A stretch of 36,690 nt of DNA from a virus. Both the position numbers and the translations under genes were made by a program. The notes under the pieces were generated by a model, which saw only the letters and a list, made by a program, of their open reading frames with translations, did no database searches and was not told the DNA's origin. Numbering within the stretch: the first letter of the stretch is position 1; the number at the start of each line of letters is the position of its first letter. The DNA lies in UHGV virus genome UHGV-0304565; one strand, given 5' to 3'. Positions 4,826 to 12,573 of this stretch are shown in pieces.

Positions 4826-5308
4826 ATGAATTTTATCGCTACTGTAAACGCACCCGCACATGGCAATATCGCTGTAACGTTCTCTGACATTGAAAAACGA
4901 GTACTTGGTGCATGGCGCGACAATGAGACGGTAGAACTGTCAGCACAAGAAAAATGCATTATTGCACGCGACATCATTTGTAATTGTCGTTACTCGCGGG
5001 TAATTGAGAAAGCGTATGTGGTAAATTCTGGATTCGGAACGTTCGTCTTTCCGGTGCGCTCCGGGCGATTCTGCCAGTCCAAGCTGATTGAGTTCGCTAC
5101 GCAGATTTCTGTCTGGATTAAAACTCAATCGTCGTTCAAATTTTCCGACGATGAAGCATTATCGCAGGGGATGCGGATCGCCAACAATGCAATTAAATGC
5201 AAAAACATTACGTATACCGCTGGCGTTGATACATGGAAACTGTTTTGCGCTAACTTTATGCTGAATGTATACGCAAGCAACCGCATCCACATCCTTGATG
5301 GCGTGTAA
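4826..5308 (+). CDS. Hypothetical early protein (160 aa)
   Basis: SD aagga 7 nt before ATG; weak hairpin plus ttctct downstream (5319-5343). Confidence 0.6.
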   Translation: MNFIATVNAPAHGNIAVTFSDIEKRVLGAWRDNETVELSAQEKCIIARDIICNCRYSRVIEKAYVVNSGFGTFVFPVRSGRFCQSKLIEFATQISVWIKTQSSFKFSDDEALSQGMRIANNAIKCKNITYTAGVDTWKLFCANFMLNVYASNRIHILDGV

Positions 5309-5343
5309 CTGAGAAGAGGGCCAGAAACGGCCCTTTCTCTATA

Positions 5344-5475
5344 GCCACCAGCTGCCGCAGGGAAATTTTCAGAAACGGCGAGGAACGTATTCATGAGCCG
5401 ACGGGGAACGGCCAGGATTTTTTCGGGAAACGGCTGCATTCGCCTTTATATAGAAAAAACATCGGGAAGCTGGTG
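5344..5475. repeat. Iteron-like array B (GGGAAACGGC-type repeats) flanked by inverted Chi-like octamers
   Basis: Repeat copies at 5359, 5370, 5381, 5402, 5424, 5463 (11/22-bp phasing); CCACCAGC at 5344-5351 and GCTGGTGG at 5468-5475. Confidence 0.55.
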
Positions 5476-5845
5476 GAATCCAACCAGCGGTTGTCGGACA
5501 GGTGAGCGGGGAAAATTATGATGACTTTCGTCGCCTGAGACATCCAGATTTCTTTCGTAGCGTAATCACATACGTGATTAAGTGGTGTGATTATGTGAAA
5601 AATCACGCGCACATAATACGCGAGCGGATACGGAACAAAACAAAATGCCGATCCGCGCCGACAATTAAACGCGGATCACATAGCAAGAATAAAAGCCAAT
5701 GATTAACCATACACCATAACGCAATATAACGCGATTTAAGCGCGTTAATGCGCTAAGTAATGGGTATATACTGGTAAGGATATAAAAGCGCGTCTGTGGC
5801 GTTATTTTGGCGCTTATTTTATGTTGTTGGAGTGAGTTAAAGACA

Positions 5846-5873
5846 ATAAAAAACGCGCCAATGATGGCGCGTT
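5846..5873 (-). terminator. Intrinsic terminator (minus strand), first of a tandem pair
   Basis: Stem aacgcgcca / tggcgcgtt with loop atga; A-run on the plus strand 5846-5851 gives a U-run on the minus transcript. Confidence 0.6.
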
Positions 5874-5893
5874 ATGGTGGAAGTATTGGAAAC

Positions 5894-5918
5894 GAAAAAA
5901 GCGCCCATAGTGGGCGCT
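5894..5918 (-). terminator. Intrinsic terminator (minus strand, possibly bidirectional)
   Basis: Stem agcgccca / tgggcgct (5900-5918), loop tag, plus-strand A6 before and tttta shortly after; the same 19-mer recurs at 6396-6414. Confidence 0.6.
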
Positions 5919-5923
5919 CGATT

Positions 5924-6154
5924 TTATTTATGTAAACTGATTTCAAATCCCATTTCTACAAACGCTTTTAGCATTAAAAATATATCAGCGTCATTCACGT
6001 CTGCTTTTTTCCGCTCCTGGTCGCTCAATAAGTCAATTTTGCGCGTCGTTTCATCTATAAGCTCGACTGCGCGCCCAGCGTAACCAGCGATCCCAGCGAT
6101 GCGATTAACATAATATTCATTATGGACGTTAACGCCAGCGATAAGAACAAACAT
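5924..6154 (-). CDS. Hypothetical protein (76 aa)
   Basis: SD aaggag upstream on the minus strand; last gene before the tandem terminators. Confidence 0.55.
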   Translation of the reverse strand: MFVLIAGVNVHNEYYVNRIAGIAGYAGRAVELIDETTRKIDLLSDQERKKADVNDADIFLMLKAFVEMGFEISLHK

Positions 6155-6174
6155 GATTAAGCTCCTTAAAAAAA

Positions 6175-6378
6175 TTAAACAGAATTTTGAAGTTTTCCGA
6201 TTAATGCGCTTAAACGTAAATATTCACGTTTACGCTTACAATCTCGTTTACTGTTAAGCAAATCAGAAAACGTAAAATTTAATTGGTCGCGTTGCGCGAT
6301 CAAATCATCGATTAATTCCAGTTTATAAGCGCGATACTTTGCGCGATATTCCGCGCGGATCTTGTCATAGCTGACCAT
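6175..6378 (-). CDS. Hypothetical protein (67 aa)
   Basis: ORF track 6175..6423; internal ATG at 6378 preferred because the first 15 codons span the 19-bp hairpin and an SD aggag precedes the second ATG. Confidence 0.5.
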   Translation of the reverse strand: MVSYDKIRAEYRAKYRAYKLELIDDLIAQRDQLNFTFSDLLNSKRDCKRKREYLRLSALIGKLQNSV

Positions 6379-6426
6379 TTTTAAAGCTCCTTTAAAGCGC
6401 CCATAGTGGGCGCTTGATTCCATTAA

Positions 6427-7077
6427 TTACGCTTTGAAAGCATCAGCTAAATAATTGTAGAAATCATTTTTAATGAAGCGATATTGCTGAGTACCAGCTT
6501 TCGCGCTCCCAGCTCCTTTGACTTTTTCAACAAGTCCGAGACGTTCGCAAAGATTGATCAACTGGTTGGCTTGAGTATAGCCAGCGTCCAATTTAATCTC
6601 GCACGCTTTTTTGGCTTCATTCATTAAATCGAAAACAGCGCCATTCGTGAACGTGTCGATCTCGTCGTTAATCATATCGATTAAAGCGAATACACGAGAT
6701 CCAGACATATCAGCGACGGAATAAACACACTTTCCAGCTTTAATGGATTTAACCAGATAAACCAGTTTTTCCAGTGAATAACTATTAGTCATAGCATCAC
6801 GGAAAAATACTTCTGGCGCTTGTTTGCTTGCTTTAATTGCATAGTAGAAAACAGAGCATAATTTTTCGTCTTCAACAGCGTTTACAACGTTGTTGATGAA
6901 GTAAGCAAGTTTAGTGGTTGCAGCTTGCATATTTGCTTTGTCTGCTTTAGTGTGCGTACCATTTTTATAATGTTCGTTATATGTTTGAGTTGCCAGATCT
7001 GCTTTTTCGCGCAGCTCGTCGGATACAATGGCAGCAGCTTCAATGATGGATTTTTTAGAAATGATAATGTTAGCCAT
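6427..7077 (-). CDS. Hypothetical protein (216 aa) with a helix-turn-helix-like C-terminal segment
   Basis: SD aagga 8 nt upstream; C-terminal YTQANQLINLCERLGLVEKVKG looks like a DNA-binding helix pair (pattern judgement only). Confidence 0.55.
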   Translation of the reverse strand: MANIIISKKSIIEAAAIVSDELREKADLATQTYNEHYKNGTHTKADKANMQAATTKLAYFINNVVNAVEDEKLCSVFYYAIKASKQAPEVFFRDAMTNSYSLEKLVYLVKSIKAGKCVYSVADMSGSRVFALIDMINDEIDTFTNGAVFDLMNEAKKACEIKLDAGYTQANQLINLCERLGLVEKVKGAGSAKAGTQQYRFIKNDFYNYLADAFKA

Positions 7078-7374
7078 GATTTTATTCCTTAGTATAAATA
7101 TTAAAATTTAACTCAAGAAAGAAAGTGTTTTGCACTCGTTCCTGATGCGTTCAATTATCGATACGCGAAAAAAGATTGCAAGTGTTTTTTTAAGTTTTTT
7201 TGCAGGTATGAAAGTCCTAGAAATAAAAGCTAGATCGTCGAAGGTGTTCCCTAAATAAATAATAAATTCCGGCTTTTGACCTTATATATTTATACGGGGG
7301 AGAATTGAATGAGTGTTAAACGAATGGCATGTAAAATAATAACCGGACTTAGCCGGTTATTACCCTTATAGAAA

Positions 7375-7896
7375 TTAAAACGGAAGGATTCGTTCAACCC
7401 AATCGAAGAAAATAAGTATTTTTCTACCGTCTTCCAACTTAAGTGTGACTAGACAGGCGTCAACGCCATCTGACGTTCCCTCAATTTCGCGACCGTCTGC
7501 CATGTAGACCCTTATAGATTTGCCGTTTTGGTAAGCCTGACGACATATCTTAAAAAAGTCACGACGTGATGGCTGATTAACCATCTGTTCATTGTTTAGC
7601 GTTAGTCGACCTGTGAATGAAGTGTCAACCTCTTCTATGCCCGACTCAATTGTGCTAATGCGCTCAAGAGGGAGCCTTATACGATTTGTGTTGCTAAGCG
7701 GATCTGGTGTGAGGTTCAGCTTATTTCTTGCGCTCAATAGCCCGTAGACATACATGCAAAACACTTGGCCGTCTTCGAGAGTGACTCTTACAGGAAATTT
7801 TGCACTCCGCCAGAAGAGCAAGGTGCGCTCAGCATGTTCGTAGTCTCGCGGCCAGACTTCAGCCGGTATGCCGTAGGTGATGTCCAATGTTCTCAT
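7375..7896 (-). CDS. Hypothetical protein (173 aa)
   Basis: Start overlaps the stop of the upstream gene (ATGA); hairpin aataaccgg/ccggttatt downstream at 7338-7365. Confidence 0.55.
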   Translation of the reverse strand: MRTLDITYGIPAEVWPRDYEHAERTLLFWRSAKFPVRVTLEDGQVFCMYVYGLLSARNKLNLTPDPLSNTNRIRLPLERISTIESGIEEVDTSFTGRLTLNNEQMVNQPSRRDFFKICRQAYQNGKSIRVYMADGREIEGTSDGVDACLVTLKLEDGRKILIFFDWVERILPF

Positions 7897-8486
7897 TCTG
7901 ATACTCTTAGAGGTGTTTTCAGCAACCCAAATTTAAATTCTTTGTTACCAACGACAAAGAAGGGAACCTCAACATAGATTTTTTTATCGACGGATTTAGA
8001 GTTCGCTGTTTTCTGTATGTCACGAACGATACGTTTTGAGATATTTTCATCGATAAACAATACCTTTCCATTTGTATTCCCTTCAGCCTTGGCGTAAGTA
8101 ACGATAGGCTCTTCATTGCCAACCCTAATGTTTACTTGGCAACCTGTTGTAGCCATTTCATCACAGTAAAGTGTGCCGTCTTGAACTTCCAAAACAATTC
8201 CAGATGGCTTCATGGCTTCGTCAGAGCTTACATTAACGTTTTCTGGTACAGCGGTCCCGTTAATTTGCAACCGTAATCTTTCTTTTCCTGCATTAAGTAT
8301 TGTTTCTTCTGCGTTATCTGAGAATCTGAACCAGACTGGTTGAATCAGACCTCGTGATTCGTATTTTAGTACGTCTTCAGAAGTATACATGCTGTACGTT
8401 TTTTGCATGTCGGAGACGATATCTGACAACGCATTTGCGGAAAATGACGAGAGGTATATACAAGCAAGAAGTAACGAACGTTTCAT
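7893..8486 (-). CDS. Hypothetical secreted/periplasmic protein (197 aa)
   Basis: N-terminus MKRSLLLACIYLSSFSANA-LSD: signal peptide with A-x-A cleavage site. Confidence 0.6.
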   Translation of the reverse strand: MKRSLLLACIYLSSFSANALSDIVSDMQKTYSMYTSEDVLKYESRGLIQPVWFRFSDNAEETILNAGKERLRLQINGTAVPENVNVSSDEAMKPSGIVLEVQDGTLYCDEMATTGCQVNIRVGNEEPIVTYAKAEGNTNGKVLFIDENISKRIVRDIQKTANSKSVDKKIYVEVPFFVVGNKEFKFGLLKTPLRVSE

Positions 8487-8666
8487 TTTTATACAGCGAT
8501 TGTTGCAAAGTAGAATTATAAATATCCAATAGTCTCAAACGATAAGTTTTCAACTGTAAATAGCAGACGTGTTTCTCTAAAAGCTGTGCGGCAAAGGCGT
8601 TGTTGCCGCACTCTGTCTATTAGCTCTTCAAGTCTGGCAATTCTGAAATTGACTAAGAATCCAATA

Positions 8667-8945
8667 TTACGGCAGTTTGCTTAGAATTTGCTCTAAATCT
8701 TCCTTTGTCATATTAGAGTTCTCATAGATGCGCATGATTTTCTCACGAGCCTTAGCAGAGACTCCAACGGCAGATGAAACTTTGTCAAATTCAGCCATTG
8801 TCATCGCTTCCAGAATGGTATTGATAACTTCAGCCTTAGACATTTTGATGTTTTTTTCTTTTAGTTTCATTTGAAACTTTCCAAGTTTGTCATTGGCCTT
8901 ATCGGACAATGCCACCTGACAATAAGTTGTTTTCTTTTCGCTCAT
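8667..8945 (-). CDS. Hypothetical small protein (92 aa), possible DNA-binding regulator
   Basis: Starts 2 nt after the helicase stop; hairpin plus T-run downstream on the minus strand (8588-8612). Confidence 0.5.
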   Translation of the reverse strand: MSEKKTTYCQVALSDKANDKLGKFQMKLKEKNIKMSKAEVINTILEAMTMAEFDKVSSAVGVSAKAREKIMRIYENSNMTKEDLEQILSKLP

Positions 8946-8947
8946 AA

Positions 8948-10507
8948 CTAATCTCGTTTCAGAACTCCAAAATCGAATGCGCCATCAATAGGCAATACAC
9001 CTTCTGCAAAGCCAGGTGTGGTGTCGATGATGTGTTTTCGCTCATAAGAGTGAGACAACAGGTATTTGTTGCTAATGTCAATGAAATCAGTGATAAAACA
9101 CACGTTTGCCTGATTCTTCTTGGCTCGTAAGCCACGACCGACACGCTGCCTCATTTCAACTTCTGCTTTCCCACCACCAGCCAGAATGACCGCACCAACG
9201 CTTGGCACATCAACACCGACATCCAGAATAGTCGAGCCTATTAAAACATCTATTTCGCCAGACGCTAAACTGTTCAGCTTTGCTTGCCTTGTCGCCTGGT
9301 TCGATTCCCCATAGATGAAGTCAACTCTAAGGCCGGACTCCTTCATCATCTCCATCAGGATTTGCCCGTGGCGTTTAAGACGAACCAGAGTCATGCAATT
9401 GAGAGAATGTTGCTTATAGAGCAATGCTTCGCGCACAATGGCCTCGTTACGTCCCAAATTATACACGATCCCCAACTGATAAGCCTTTTGGTAGGCTGTG
9501 CTCATACCTACTCTAAAATTAAGGTGTTTGTTGGCAAGTTCCGCCTTGATTCTGACCTCGTCTGGCTTGTAAGCAACTTTATGATAAAGGAAGTACGGTT
9601 TTGCCAGAATGCCTCGATCAATCAGGTACTTTTCTGTGACTTTAATTTCAATTCGCCCGGCCACCGCCATCAGGCGCATGTTGGCTTCCGTCGAATCCTT
9701 CATGAACGGCGTGGCTGTAAGCGCCAGACGATAGTCTGCGTTCACACATAATCTGGCGATGTCATAGAAATTTGAGCCTGAAGACTCATGCGCCTCTTCC
9801 AGAATAAGAAGAGAGACACTTGAAAGGAAGCGTTTCACCAACTCCCGACGTTTGAGGTGGTAGCTCTTTTTATCTGGTGTTGCATCGCGTGGTGGTTCTT
9901 CAAGGAAACTTGCCAGAGTTTGAACTGTAGCGACGTTGATATGTCGTGATACCTGGAACTCACCCGAGCCAATGACTCCAACCTTTTGGTCTTTTAACCA
10001 CGGTTCGCCATTTTCGGCGCGGTAGTCGATGGATCTCTGGAAGTTTTCGGCCATTTGAAACATCAGAACAGAGCGGGTTGTTAAAAATAATGTCATTCGA
10101 CCGATACGTGCAGCTGCTTTGCAGGCAACGTTAGATTTCCCGCCACCAGTAGCGATCTGCGCAATCATCATTCCCTCTCGAACCAGTGTTTCCACAGTCT
10201 GATCCTGATACGCATAATCAGGATTGTATGGGAATGGGTTAACCGCCGGATTTGGTTTTCCAAGCGCCGGGGCTTTGTCTTTGCGGATATGAACACATTT
10301 GATGCCCGCCTTGTTCAAGTTCGCCGCTACAGGCTTGGCAAAGCCAGCAGGGAACGAGTTTTTACTCCAGTTGAACATCGTGCTTGTGCCCTTCCAGTCG
10401 CCAGTCTCGACTTCGTAGCTCAACATTTGCTGCACCAGTTGCTTTACCTTGTCATCTGCGCCAGAAATAAGCGCATTTACTGCGTTAGATACAATCCGAA
10501 CAGTCAT
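8948..10507 (-). CDS. Superfamily-2 DEAD/DEAH-box helicase (519 aa)
   Basis: Walker A ATGGGKS, DExH-like LILEEAHESSG, motif VI QRVGRGLR; SD aaggaaagagg upstream. Confidence 0.8.
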   Translation of the reverse strand: MTVRIVSNAVNALISGADDKVKQLVQQMLSYEVETGDWKGTSTMFNWSKNSFPAGFAKPVAANLNKAGIKCVHIRKDKAPALGKPNPAVNPFPYNPDYAYQDQTVETLVREGMMIAQIATGGGKSNVACKAAARIGRMTLFLTTRSVLMFQMAENFQRSIDYRAENGEPWLKDQKVGVIGSGEFQVSRHINVATVQTLASFLEEPPRDATPDKKSYHLKRRELVKRFLSSVSLLILEEAHESSGSNFYDIARLCVNADYRLALTATPFMKDSTEANMRLMAVAGRIEIKVTEKYLIDRGILAKPYFLYHKVAYKPDEVRIKAELANKHLNFRVGMSTAYQKAYQLGIVYNLGRNEAIVREALLYKQHSLNCMTLVRLKRHGQILMEMMKESGLRVDFIYGESNQATRQAKLNSLASGEIDVLIGSTILDVGVDVPSVGAVILAGGGKAEVEMRQRVGRGLRAKKNQANVCFITDFIDISNKYLLSHSYERKHIIDTTPGFAEGVLPIDGAFDFGVLKRD

Positions 10508-10552
10508 AAACCTCTTTCCTTAGTGCCTTTTGTATGTTATTTGGCTATTATA

Positions 10553-10572
10553 ATAAGTAAGTGATTACTTAG
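10553..10572. promoter_or_regulatory. ATAAGTAA-family motif with inverted repeat (AGTAA-gtga-TTACT) in the divergent intergenic region
   Basis: Read directly; adjacent TATAAT at 10548-10553. Confidence 0.4.
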
Positions 10573-10589
10573 TGGATTGTAGCAATAAA

Positions 10590-11270
10590 ATGGATGTAAA
10601 AATCACGATTTTGCAGGTTGATGTTGTCAACCTTCGCCCGAATACCTGGAACACCAATTCGGTTGGTGCGCAGAATTTTGAAAAACTGAAAGGTTCTATC
10701 GAAAAATTGGGCTTTTTTAAGCCAATTTTGGCTCGTGAACTTGAAGATGGATTTTTTGAAATCCTCGGCGGCGAACATCGCTGGCGTGCTGCTATTGAGC
10801 AAGGAATTTCAACGGTTCCGGTGCTTTCTGTGGGCAAAATTAGCGATGTCGTGGCAAAACAGATGTCACTGGTGGACAACGAGCGATACGGTGAAGACGA
10901 CCAAATCGCATTGCAACGCTTCATTGAAGAAATTCAGTCAGAACTTGACTATCAACTGTCTGAAATCGCCCCGTATGACGACGAAATCTCGATGGTTTTA
11001 GCAAAAGAGGCGGCAATCGACCTTGAAGCACTGGAGGCGTTGTCTCGTGGTAGTGATGAGCCTGTCGATACCGACAAACGAGAGAAAACCGAACGTGTGG
11101 GTGCGGAACATCAGACCATGCGCTTCAAAGTAACTTTCGATGCGTCAGATCGTGTTGCAGAAACCATAAAAAACATCATCAAAGAGCAGGCTATTAACAC
11201 CGGTAATGAAATGGAGAACGCTGGTGAGGCTCTGGTGTGGCTGGTCGACTACTACAAGGAGCGTATGTAA
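10590..11270 (+). CDS. ParB/Srx-like N-terminal domain protein 1
   Basis: ILGGEHRWRAA resembles the ParB GERRxRA box. ORF track starts at GTG 10572; start uncertain. Confidence 0.6.
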   Translation: MDVKITILQVDVVNLRPNTWNTNSVGAQNFEKLKGSIEKLGFFKPILARELEDGFFEILGGEHRWRAAIEQGISTVPVLSVGKISDVVAKQMSLVDNERYGEDDQIALQRFIEEIQSELDYQLSEIAPYDDEISMVLAKEAAIDLEALEALSRGSDEPVDTDKREKTERVGAEHQTMRFKVTFDASDRVAETIKNIIKEQAINTGNEMENAGEALVWLVDYYKERM

Positions 11271-11938
11271 TGACCAAAAAGTTTGAAATCGTATATCGCG
11301 ACCCGGCAGATCTTATTCCCTATGAGATGAATGCCAAAAAGCATGATGAACAGCAGATCCGAGATCTGGCCGCAGCCATTAAAAAGCGCGGATTTGACCA
11401 GCCAATTACGGTCGATAAGAACGACGTAATTATTACTGGCCACGGCCGCCGTGAGGCTGCAATTTTTGCTGGACTTGAGCGCGTACCGGTTATTGTTCGC
11501 GATGATCTCAGTGATGACGAGGTTCGTGCGAAGCGCCTTGAAGATAACCGACTTGCCAGCATTGATTACGATGCAATTAAGCTACAGAAAGAGCTTGAGT
11601 CGCTTGTTCTGGACGATATCGAGGTTTTCGGCTTTGAAGAGCGTGAGTTGAATGTTCTCGTTGGCAGTATGACAGAAGAAATGGACACCGACTCGCTAGT
11701 TATCGATCTTGGCGAAGAAACTAAACGACAGAAGGATGAACACACCGAGATCAGTCGTGAAGTTGCAGCGGAAGAAGTACGTGTTGTCGACGTATTGGGC
11801 TTTAAAACGCTCCCTGCTGGCTCTGCCATTGTTGTTGGTGATTTGCTTGCCCATATGGAAGAAATGACGGGAGAAAGCGGGGTAGACGCATTTGTGGCAT
11901 ATGCGGAGAAGATCTCTTCCGGGGAGATGGCTGCATGA
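11270..11938 (+). CDS. ParB/Srx-like domain protein 2
   Basis: ITGHGRREAA motif; ATG overlaps the previous stop (TAATG); SD aaggag 9 nt upstream. Confidence 0.6.
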   Translation: MTKKFEIVYRDPADLIPYEMNAKKHDEQQIRDLAAAIKKRGFDQPITVDKNDVIITGHGRREAAIFAGLERVPVIVRDDLSDDEVRAKRLEDNRLASIDYDAIKLQKELESLVLDDIEVFGFEERELNVLVGSMTEEMDTDSLVIDLGEETKRQKDEHTEISREVAAEEVRVVDVLGFKTLPAGSAIVVGDLLAHMEEMTGESGVDAFVAYAEKISSGEMAA

Positions 11939-12573
11939 GCAAATACATCATCAACGTATCGTTTCAGACACGCGTAAATAAAACCACGCGCACGTTGGAA
12001 ATCGCTGAGTCGTTCGGGCTTGGCCTGGACGAAAAAGAGTGGACGCTTTACGACAATCTGGAGCTGGAAGTGAAGCAGGGCGATGTGGTGTACATCACCG
12101 GCCAATCCGGTTCCGGCAAATCCGTTGTGCTGCGCGAGTTGCAACGACAGATGAAGGATGAAGGGCTGTCTGTAGCCTCCATCGATGATTTTACCTTCGA
12201 TAATGAGGTTAACGTCATCGATCAGTTGGGCAAAACGACCAGTGATGCGCTTGGGTTGTTATCTATGGCTGGTCTGAACGATGCATATCTGTTTGTTCGC
12301 AAGCCTTCTGAAATGTCAGACGGCCAGAAATATCGTCTCAAGATTGCCAAACTGATTGAGTCAGGCGCTAAAGTATGGGCTGCTGACGAGTTCGGCGCTG
12401 TTCTAGACCGTGTAACCGCTCAGGTTGTGGCGTCTAACCTCCAGCGTGCCGCTCGAAAGGTTGGTGCGACGGTAATGGTGGCGACGACTCACGAAGACCT
12501 GAAGAACGCGCTGCGCCCGGATATGCAGATCACCAAGCACTACAAAGAACGCGTGAAGGTGGAATATGCCTGA
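11935..12573 (+). CDS. ABC-type ATPase (minimal nucleotide-binding domain, 212 aa)
   Basis: Walker A GQSGSGKS, signature-like SDGQKYRL, Walker B VWAADEF, H-loop ATTHED; ATGA overlap with the upstream gene. Confidence 0.7.
   Translation: MSKYIINVSFQTRVNKTTRTLEIAESFGLGLDEKEWTLYDNLELEVKQGDVVYITGQSGSGKSVVLRELQRQMKDEGLSVASIDDFTFDNEVNVIDQLGKTTSDALGLLSMAGLNDAYLFVRKPSEMSDGQKYRLKIAKLIESGAKVWAADEFGAVLDRVTAQVVASNLQRAARKVGATVMVATTHEDLKNALRPDMQITKHYKERVKVEYA

Follow-up and report, generated by a model that had tools for sequence, protein, structure and literature searches.

Phage-plasmids of the SSU5/pHCM2/pMT1 type are widespread in clinical Enterobacteriaceae, with more than 800 plasmid records found here, including the Yersinia pestis virulence plasmid pMT1, and a function is known for almost none of their backbone genes. 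The UHGV virus genome UHGV-0304565, a stretch of 36,690 nucleotides that is referred to as the window, carries a segment of such a backbone at positions 5924-10507, where seven minus-strand open reading frames (ORFs) follow one another, and the question raised by this locus is whether these genes form one functional module. An initial annotation had read them as a candidate replication and exclusion module, in which a superfamily 2 (SF2) helicase and a 216-amino-acid (aa) helix-turn-helix protein start or organise replication at adjacent iterons and a periplasmic protein excludes other phages. The reading favoured here, with a probability of roughly 0.6, is that the block is a conserved backbone segment composed of three independently regulated units and is not one module. 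This view is based on the separation of the units, on the presence of a homolog of the flagellin repressor FljA among the products, on the silence of the 216-aa gene in a related lysogen and on the accessory status of the secreted protein, which has no link to exclusion proteins. The analysis splits four core genes from a swappable slot for envelope proteins and sorts them into lysogen-expressed and lysogen-silent units; the point of wider interest is that one of the core genes belongs to the FljA family and is kept regardless of host flagellation.

A shared backbone and its variable slot

Over region 5500-11000, the window shares 93-97% nucleotide identity with CMS-2020a, PhiR41_1 and Cyrano (pLF82), all of them Escherichia phages, and 80% with Salmonella phage SSU5, which identifies its source as an SSU5/pHCM2/pMT1-type phage-plasmid. 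Membership in this family is further reflected in the gene order, which is kept throughout a synteny table of 13 loci: SSU5, pHCM2, pMT1, Cyrano, PhiR41_1 and CMS-2020a all contain the same block in the same order, adjoined by the same divergent ParB-like/ATPase operon. In the window, the block is flanked by plus-strand small genes and by this operon, which begins at 10572. Positions 5924-10507 are a largely ordinary backbone segment of a known family that has been sequenced and annotated many times before. All seven minus-strand ORFs lie where the initial annotation had placed them, and each matches a PHROG family (E about 2e-93 to 1e-39), so that they represent real genes and not chance ORFs.

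The distribution of the proteins was assessed by tblastn against 72,556 plasmids. The FljA-like, 92-aa and 216-aa proteins are found in 831, 817 and 815 records, respectively, and their host spread is alike, with ~340 records from Klebsiella, ~220 from Escherichia, ~90 from Enterobacter, 62 from Yersinia and 50-60 from Salmonella. The order helicase, 92-aa gene, slot, FljA-like gene and 216-aa gene recurs in 13 of the 13 phage-plasmid loci examined, which include a Klebsiella element that is divergent, differs in replicon type and has an FljA-like protein of just 38% identity. The helicase, 92-aa, FljA-like and 216-aa genes constitute the core set, whereas the exported 197-aa protein, detected in 65 plasmid records (54 of them Escherichia), is accessory cargo. 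Among the relatives, each lineage has cargo of its own in the slot that separates the 92-aa gene from the FljA-like gene: Cyrano encodes an unrelated 199-aa protein and a plus-strand 266-aa lipoprotein (E=2.1 against the 197-aa protein of the window), SSU5 and pMT1 a 140-aa lipoprotein, and Klebsiella elements either a 145-aa lipoprotein on the opposite strand or three other ORFs. For the slot proteins of all these lineages, no significant Pfam match was obtained.

Between the window and Cyrano, identity amounts to 99% for the helicase, 98% for the 216-aa protein, 89% for the 92-aa protein and 75% for the FljA-like protein, and the slot contents are unlike. This gradient, together with the differing slots, places the centre of a variable patch on the slot and its two neighbours, which is a sequence pattern that is expected of specificity-determining regulators. 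The coordinates of all features are collected in Table 1.

Table 1. Genes and predicted control elements of the block, in the direction of transcription
Feature	Position	Strand	Remarks
SF2 helicase, 519 aa	8948..10507	-	core; first gene of unit 1
92-aa core protein	8667..8945	-	start 2 nt past the helicase stop codon
GC-rich hairpin, 9-bp stem	8586..8611	-	past the 92-aa gene, ahead of the slot gene; unit 1 probably ends here
Exported 197-aa protein	7893..8486	-	accessory cargo in the variable slot
FljA-family protein (PF03614), 173 aa	7375..7896	-	core; ATGA overlap with the slot gene
Predicted intrinsic terminator, 14-bp stem and U-run	7333..7366	-	after the stop codon of the FljA-like gene
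Regulatory region upstream of the 216-aa operon	7078..7332	-	invariant blocks and promoter
Sigma-70-like promoter, TTGCAA-16-GATAAT	7181-7154	-	predicted from sequence
216-aa core protein	6427..7077	-	N-terminal helical domain and C-terminal winged helix (modelled); homolog silent in the Cyrano lysogen
Small ORF, listed as 82 aa	6175..6423	-	probable start 6378, 67 aa
76-aa ORF	5924..6154	-	last gene of unit 3; strong Shine-Dalgarno sequence
Two tandem predicted intrinsic terminators	5919-5899 and 5873-5852	-	end of unit 3

Transcription units and their expression in a related lysogen

Hairpins, a conserved promoter and transcriptome data from Cyrano indicate that the block contains at least three separately regulated units, at odds with the single module of the initial annotation. 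Expression values were taken from RNA-seq of E. coli LF82 carrying Cyrano, in which the median prophage background is 9.81 (S1 Table of PMC9928086).

Unit 1 (10507-8667) would consist of an XPB/UvsW-like SF2 helicase and a translationally coupled 92-aa protein, both transcribed in the plasmid (lysogenic) state. In overnight lysogeny broth (LB) cultures, the helicase counterpart CYRAN_118 reaches 46.1, or 4.7x background, with log2 values of 7.2-8.4 elsewhere, and the 92-aa counterpart CYRAN_117 reaches 114.5, or 11.7x background; the latter is high in all conditions and listed as lysogen-expressed (PMC9928086). CYRAN_117, which is 89% identical to the 92-aa protein of the window, is the top-expressed gene of the block in this lysogen. 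The identification of the first gene as an SF2 helicase (DEAD/DEAH, ResIII) by the initial annotation is upheld by motifs I (ATGGGKS), II (EEAH, residues 237-240), III (TAT, 264-266) and VI (QRVGRGLR, 454-461) and by above-threshold matches to the Pfam domains ResIII (1.2e-14), DEAD (2.7e-14) and Helicase_C (4.9e-13), with phrog_16 'DNA helicase' as the PHROG family (2e-93). Its identity across all related loci is 72-99%. The nearest PDB sequences are XPBII (2.4e-12), Rad25/XPB (1.5e-8), RecG (4e-8) and T4 UvsW (4.8e-8). XPB/Rad25, UvsW and RecG share two RecA-like domains and motifs I, II (EEAH), III and VI with the window protein, yet the likeness is confined to this core (E 1e-8 to 1e-12): no domain is assigned to the N-terminal residues ~1-95, and the scores stay below all specific subfamily thresholds. 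T4 UvsW (2oca), the name given to the protein in the Cyrano annotation, aligns with residues 229-485 only and more weakly than XPBII.

The 92-aa protein belongs to phrog_1466 (9.6e-46) and weakly matches phrog_4268 'transcriptional repressor' (5.5e-4). Its alignment follows the pattern CQVxL..KANxKL..F...L.E....SKA(E/D)(V/I)I, and the ribbon-helix-helix (RHH)-like pattern of the N-terminal sequence makes a small DNA-binding regulator possible. Unit 1 may supply a helicase that functions in the replication, repair or recombination of DNA, together with a small protein that acts as regulator or partner. Because the minus-strand T-run of the hairpin that follows the 92-aa gene is weak (AGCTTTTA), its role as a terminator is put forward with reserve.

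Unit 2 (8486-7375) would comprise the hypervariable cargo slot followed by the core FljA-family gene with a terminator of its own (7366-7333), which is invariant among elements of four genera. The slot lipoprotein CYRAN_115 stands at 28.6 in overnight LB and rises to log2 ~9.2-9.4 in growing and intramacrophage bacteria versus 4.7-5.0 in overnight LB, while the FljA-like counterpart CYRAN_114 stands at 18.1, with log2 7-8.1 in growing and intramacrophage bacteria (PMC9928086). The up-regulation of CYRAN_115 implies that slot cargo can be highly expressed lysogenic-conversion genes. In the window, the slot product is exported, as the initial annotation had recognised: its conserved Sec-type signal peptide is composed of MKR, a hydrophobic core and a cleavage site between FSANA and LSD, and the ATGA overlap of its gene with the 173-aa gene is likewise borne out. 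As Cys9 is not conserved, the protein is not a lipoprotein; Cys108 and Cys116 of the mature protein are invariant.

Phage morons and lysogenic-conversion loci are known to encode lipoproteins or exported proteins, such as Cor, Llp and Bor. These loci likewise place a small exported-protein or lipoprotein gene at a hypervariable position of a temperate element, although the slot protein of the window has no sequence or fold similarity to Cor, Llp or Bor. Similarly, no sequence or fold similarity to known exclusion or defence proteins was detected (PADLOC, Pfam, PHROG-annotated families). The 197-aa protein fits a moron or lysogenic-conversion envelope protein, in line with its being accessory and with the lysogen expression of the Cyrano slot lipoprotein, and the superinfection exclusion that the initial annotation had suggested for it is one possible, putative function.

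Unit 3 (7181-5924) would be driven by a conserved promoter within an operator-like region, encode one or two small proteins besides the winged-helix protein of 216 aa, and end at the tandem terminators that the initial annotation had located. Its counterparts CYRAN_113 (216 aa) and CYRAN_112 (76 aa) remain at the floor in overnight LB, with 5.9 and 5.0, and are low in the other conditions (PMC9928086). Its silence in lysogens suggests that the unit acts once the element is induced, with a DNA-binding product that may regulate or organise the lytic phase. The 297-bp spacer between the FljA-like and 216-aa genes (7078-7374) has a mean identity of 81% across seven elements from four genera and is better conserved than the adjacent FljA-like coding sequence (E. 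coli, Salmonella, Yersinia and Klebsiella elements). It includes long invariant blocks, e.g. ATTTATTTAGGnAACACCTTCGA, and a repeated TATAAGG(G)T motif, and it probably holds operator sites for the predicted lysogen-silent promoter. In an RNAalifold analysis of this region, only the invariant terminator was supported and no covariation was detected, so the conserved blocks before the 216-aa gene are best read as DNA-level control sites. An Rfam scan of 5200-10900 returned no significant RNA family.

A probable regulator of the FljA family as a core gene

The initial annotation had found no assignable motif in the 173-aa protein, which is in fact a full-length member of the FljA family: it matches Pfam PF03614 (Flag1_repress) with 230.5 bits against a cut-off of 24 (E=1.4e-68, profile positions 1-170 of 170) and phrog_1444 with 1.1e-89. 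The homology search thus assigns to one member of the proposed module the unrelated function of a flagellin translational repressor, an outcome that the initial annotation had named as refuting its reading. FljA of the Salmonella fljBA operon and of the linear plasmid pBSSB1 has the same size and full-length homology, and the invariant motifs YG..AE.WPR.Y, DFF.IC, DGR and DWV.RI are common to the window protein and flagellin-linked FljA. The identity is 35% from end to end with the flagellin-linked FljA of a 26-kb linear Salmonella plasmid (E=3e-34). FljA blocks the translation of fliC mRNA and hence acts post-transcriptionally, as do plasmid-borne FljA homologs (PMC2652032).

Unlike FljA, the window protein belongs to the core set of a lineage of phage-plasmids whose hosts include non-flagellated bacteria, and its gene follows that of a variable exported protein instead of flagellin. 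A tblastn search with flagellin yielded no match in the window or in any phage-plasmid locus, whereas the control locus presents flagellin followed by FljA; with the 197-aa gene immediately upstream, the locus is not an operon of the fljB-fljA type. An E. coli chromosomal relative of the gene is located among 92-aa and 76-aa ORFs and not near flagellin. A scan of species-representative genomes for FljA contexts, made with search patterns specific to the phage-plasmid clade, returned six loci, all of them phage-plasmid. The plasmid records that encode FljA-like proteins include 341 from Klebsiella and 62 of Y. pestis pMT1, two classically non-motile hosts. The gene has remained intact, with a ratio of nonsynonymous to synonymous substitution rates (dN/dS) of 0.07-0.3 that indicates purifying selection, and forms three distinct lineages in Klebsiella plasmids. 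E. coli LF82 is a motile strain (PMC8956108) in which the Cyrano copy is present and expressed. No paper that ties SSU5-type phage-plasmids to FljA, motility or the helicase of the block was found in the literature searched; a preprint on heteroresistance deals with another phage-plasmid family.

The absence of a neighbouring flagellin gene, the maintenance of an intact, selected gene in Klebsiella and Y. pestis plasmids and the motility of LF82 favour a regulator of element transcripts over a role in flagellin control. The protein would then be an RNA-binding post-transcriptional regulator, in the manner of FljA, whose target lies in the element itself or at least is not host flagellin. The status as a core gene suggests such an element-internal role and a possible mobile-element origin of FljA. 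Residues 120-164 weakly resemble Hfq/Sm proteins, in that Hfq and Hfq-like proteins are the sole PDB profile matches, accompanied by weak Pfam Hfq/LSM similarity. A broader scenario can be drawn only tentatively and is considered rather unlikely as a whole: the family would descend from an Sm/Hfq-like binder of the phage-plasmid's own mRNAs, e.g. those of the lysis-lysogeny circuit or of the neighbouring lysogen-silent operon, the flagellar FljA of Salmonella and pBSSB1-type plasmids would be a later exaptation, and an allele-specific, immunity-like variable patch made up of the FljA-like gene, its 92-aa neighbour and the slot would lie in a backbone that is otherwise 98-99% conserved. An answer to why the FljA-like gene is conserved could reveal both an RNA-level regulator of lysogeny and the evolutionary source of FljA.

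The alternative that the protein represses host fliC translation, so that lysogeny lowers flagellin, is unlikely. It would draw on the full-length homology to a functional FljA with its invariant motifs, on the post-transcriptional repression of fliC by the FljA homologs of other plasmids (PMC2652032), on expression of the Cyrano copy in growing and intramacrophage bacteria and on the largely motile host range of the family (E. coli, Salmonella, Enterobacter and Citrobacter); the lysogen might gain by escaping flagellotropic phages, by saving energy or by evading TLR5/NLRC4 recognition. However, identity to true FljA is just 35%, the missing partner flagellin gene leaves no logic of phase variation, and neither purifying selection in the three Klebsiella-borne lineages and on pMT1, in non-motile hosts, nor the motile phenotype of LF82 with Cyrano is in line with this role. 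Additionally, S. Typhi strains with pHCM2 still express H:d flagellin.

For the preferred reading of three units with an element-internal FljA-like regulator, what is taken as shown comprises the identities of the genes, their division into core and accessory, their synteny, the terminators, the conservation of the promoter region and the expression pattern of a close relative. Several points nevertheless weigh against it. Expression was measured in Cyrano, a 93%-identical relative, and not in the element of the window, where promoter use could differ because slot content and orientation around the FljA-like gene are not those of Cyrano. All hairpin terminators are predictions, and the biochemical roles of all block proteins are inferred. 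The Hfq/Sm similarity of the FljA-like protein is sub-threshold (E about 1), and an arrangement into tandem Sm-like domains was rejected, as hhalign gave a probability of 0.7% for its N-terminal versus C-terminal half. Conservation in Klebsiella and Yersinia does not strictly exclude a flagellin target, because the plasmids could be recent arrivals there, and a partial repression of FliC would leave LF82 motile. Finally, an RHH fold of the 92-aa protein finds no Pfam match, and PDB searches with the single sequence and with the profile gave only designed helical repeats and noise.

The 216-aa protein, the remaining alternatives and flanking sequences

The helix-turn-helix-like C-terminus that the initial annotation had noticed in the 216-aa protein is predicted as a winged helix: the AlphaFold model (predicted local distance difference test, pLDDT, 81; predicted template modelling score, pTM, 0.70) places three helices and a beta-hairpin wing after long N-terminal helices. 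In contrast to the winged-helix regulators MarR, ArsR, PadR and Fur/PerR, to which it has no sequence similarity, the protein possesses a helical N-terminal domain of ~125 residues without counterpart, and no whole-chain match was found in PDB or BFVD. The family is narrow, with 102 clusters that are nearly all located on contigs of ~105-112 kb, and the protein is 84-98% identical across genera. An exhaustive profile search of 1.84 billion proteins returned 23 representatives, all from the 216-aa family, and no remote homologs. No Rep-family signature was recognised by Pfam, NCBIfam or PDB profiles, and fold searches produced only generic winged-helix matches.

The iteron array that was said to adjoin the block (array B) is unsupported, as Tandem Repeats Finder and a repeat finder detected nothing in 5300-5900 but short repeats of two copies. 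ATAACGC, the best motif, occurs 10 times in the window, with a weak cluster of 4 copies in 5716-5875, one of which is a terminator stem. The Cyrano plasmid is kept at 5.5 copies per cell, and a repA of its own is encoded elsewhere. The silence of the 216-aa gene in the lysogen, the separate repA, the lack of a sequence match to Rep families or PDB entries and the missing adjacent iterons argue that the protein is not the initiator of the plasmid state. The part of the replication-initiator proposal that concerns the plasmid state is thereby abandoned, while a lytic-phase role, as a regulator or, by analogy to P1 RepL, as a lytic initiator, is possible.

The specific version in which the protein initiates lytic replication and the helicase serves it, comparable to RepL/oriL of P1, which is repressed in lysogens and distinct from RepA/oriR, is quite improbable. 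It is compatible with the strictly core status of the gene, with its lysogen silence and the strongly conserved promoter and operator-like sequence in front of it, with the modelled winged-helix domain and with a helicase in the neighbourhood. Yet neither the sequence nor the whole fold of the 216-aa protein resembles RepL, lambda O or another initiator, a search in and beside the gene revealed neither repeats nor an AT-rich element like an origin (the one tandem repeat, at 6329-6357, is coding), and the helicase is regulated otherwise, being expressed in the lysogen. Less probable still is the single replication-and-exclusion module, since the co-orientation and synteny of the block across the family, a bona fide SF2 helicase by sequence, a winged helix of the kind that Rep initiators also use (with two 'replication protein' entries among the weak BFVD domain matches) and a moron-like accessory exported protein are outweighed by at least three differently regulated units, by a 216-aa gene that is silent while the plasmid replicates at its 5.5 copies with repA elsewhere, by the lack of a Rep-family match and of convincing iterons, by an FljA homolog among the members and by the lack of likeness to any exclusion protein.

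Similarly improbable is a lysogen-expressed defence or anti-defence system made up of the helicase and the 92-aa protein, perhaps with the divergent ParB-like/ATPase genes: both proteins are expressed in the lysogenic state, the helicase weakly matches PADLOC PbeA (5e-23) and the NCBIfam dnd restriction helicase (3.9e-16), and a Klebsiella SSU5-like plasmid is described in one report as protective against incoming DNA (PMC8969562), but the scores are far under the family cut-offs (59 versus 600 bits) and reflect the generic SF2 core only, no nuclease or sensor domain is present, the ParB-like genes are silent in the lysogen, and PADLOC matched no other gene of the block.

The end of unit 3 differs between elements: the window has the 67/82-aa as well as the 76-aa tail ORF, whereas most relatives have one. 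The initial annotation was right that both are real, although the listed start of the 82-aa ORF does not hold: an AAGGAG Shine-Dalgarno sequence precedes Met16 and none precedes Met1, and both the PHROG profile and SSU5_119 begin at Met16, so translation probably starts there (6378) and yields 67 aa. This ORF belongs to phrog_6145 (1.9e-46, aligned from residue 16) and is found in SSU5 and Klebsiella elements and not in Cyrano or pMT1; conversely, the 76-aa ORF (phrog_1585, 5.5e-39) is found in Cyrano and pMT1 and not in SSU5 or Klebsiella elements. No informative matches were obtained for either protein. The label 'MIT family metal ion transporter', which is attached to the former in PHROG and in the SSU5 annotation, is not credible for a soluble protein of 67 aa and is almost certainly an annotation error.

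Downstream of the block, positions 5300-5920 are ~600 bp of non-coding sequence with hairpins at 5310-5340 (plus strand), 5678-5649 and 5622-5606 (both minus strand); beyond the close E. coli relatives, conservation begins only at ~5800. On the opposite side, the divergent plus-strand operon (10572-12573 and beyond) encodes two proteins with ParB/Srx-like N-terminal domains and an ABC-type ATPase, and relatives also encode an ATPase fused to an acetyltransferase. This operon adjoins the helicase in every relative, is silent in the Cyrano lysogen (floor level) and probably does not serve plasmid partition.

Some contigs and proteins that contain these enterobacterial genes are labelled as metagenome-assembled genomes of Bacillota or 'Candidatus Fimivivens', as Finegoldia magna or as Gemella morbillorum, and such labels are most likely binning or contamination artefacts. 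An apparently decaying copy of the block is located on the E. coli chromosome CP125919.1 (385158-397682) and includes a helicase fragment, the 92-aa ORF, a partial 216-aa gene and the 76-aa ORF, together with a secreted-protein homolog of 45% and an FljA-like gene of 48% identity, which suggests an integrated relic of a related element. Elsewhere in the window, positions 1000-2000 display a strong strand asymmetry (GC skew -0.35, AT skew +0.33) and degenerate direct repeats, namely 29-mers of the GCCATTAC type at 1630, 1743 and 1833 and repeats with a period of ~31 nt at 1507-1593. These may correspond to the other iteron array of the initial annotation or to an origin-like or binding-site region.

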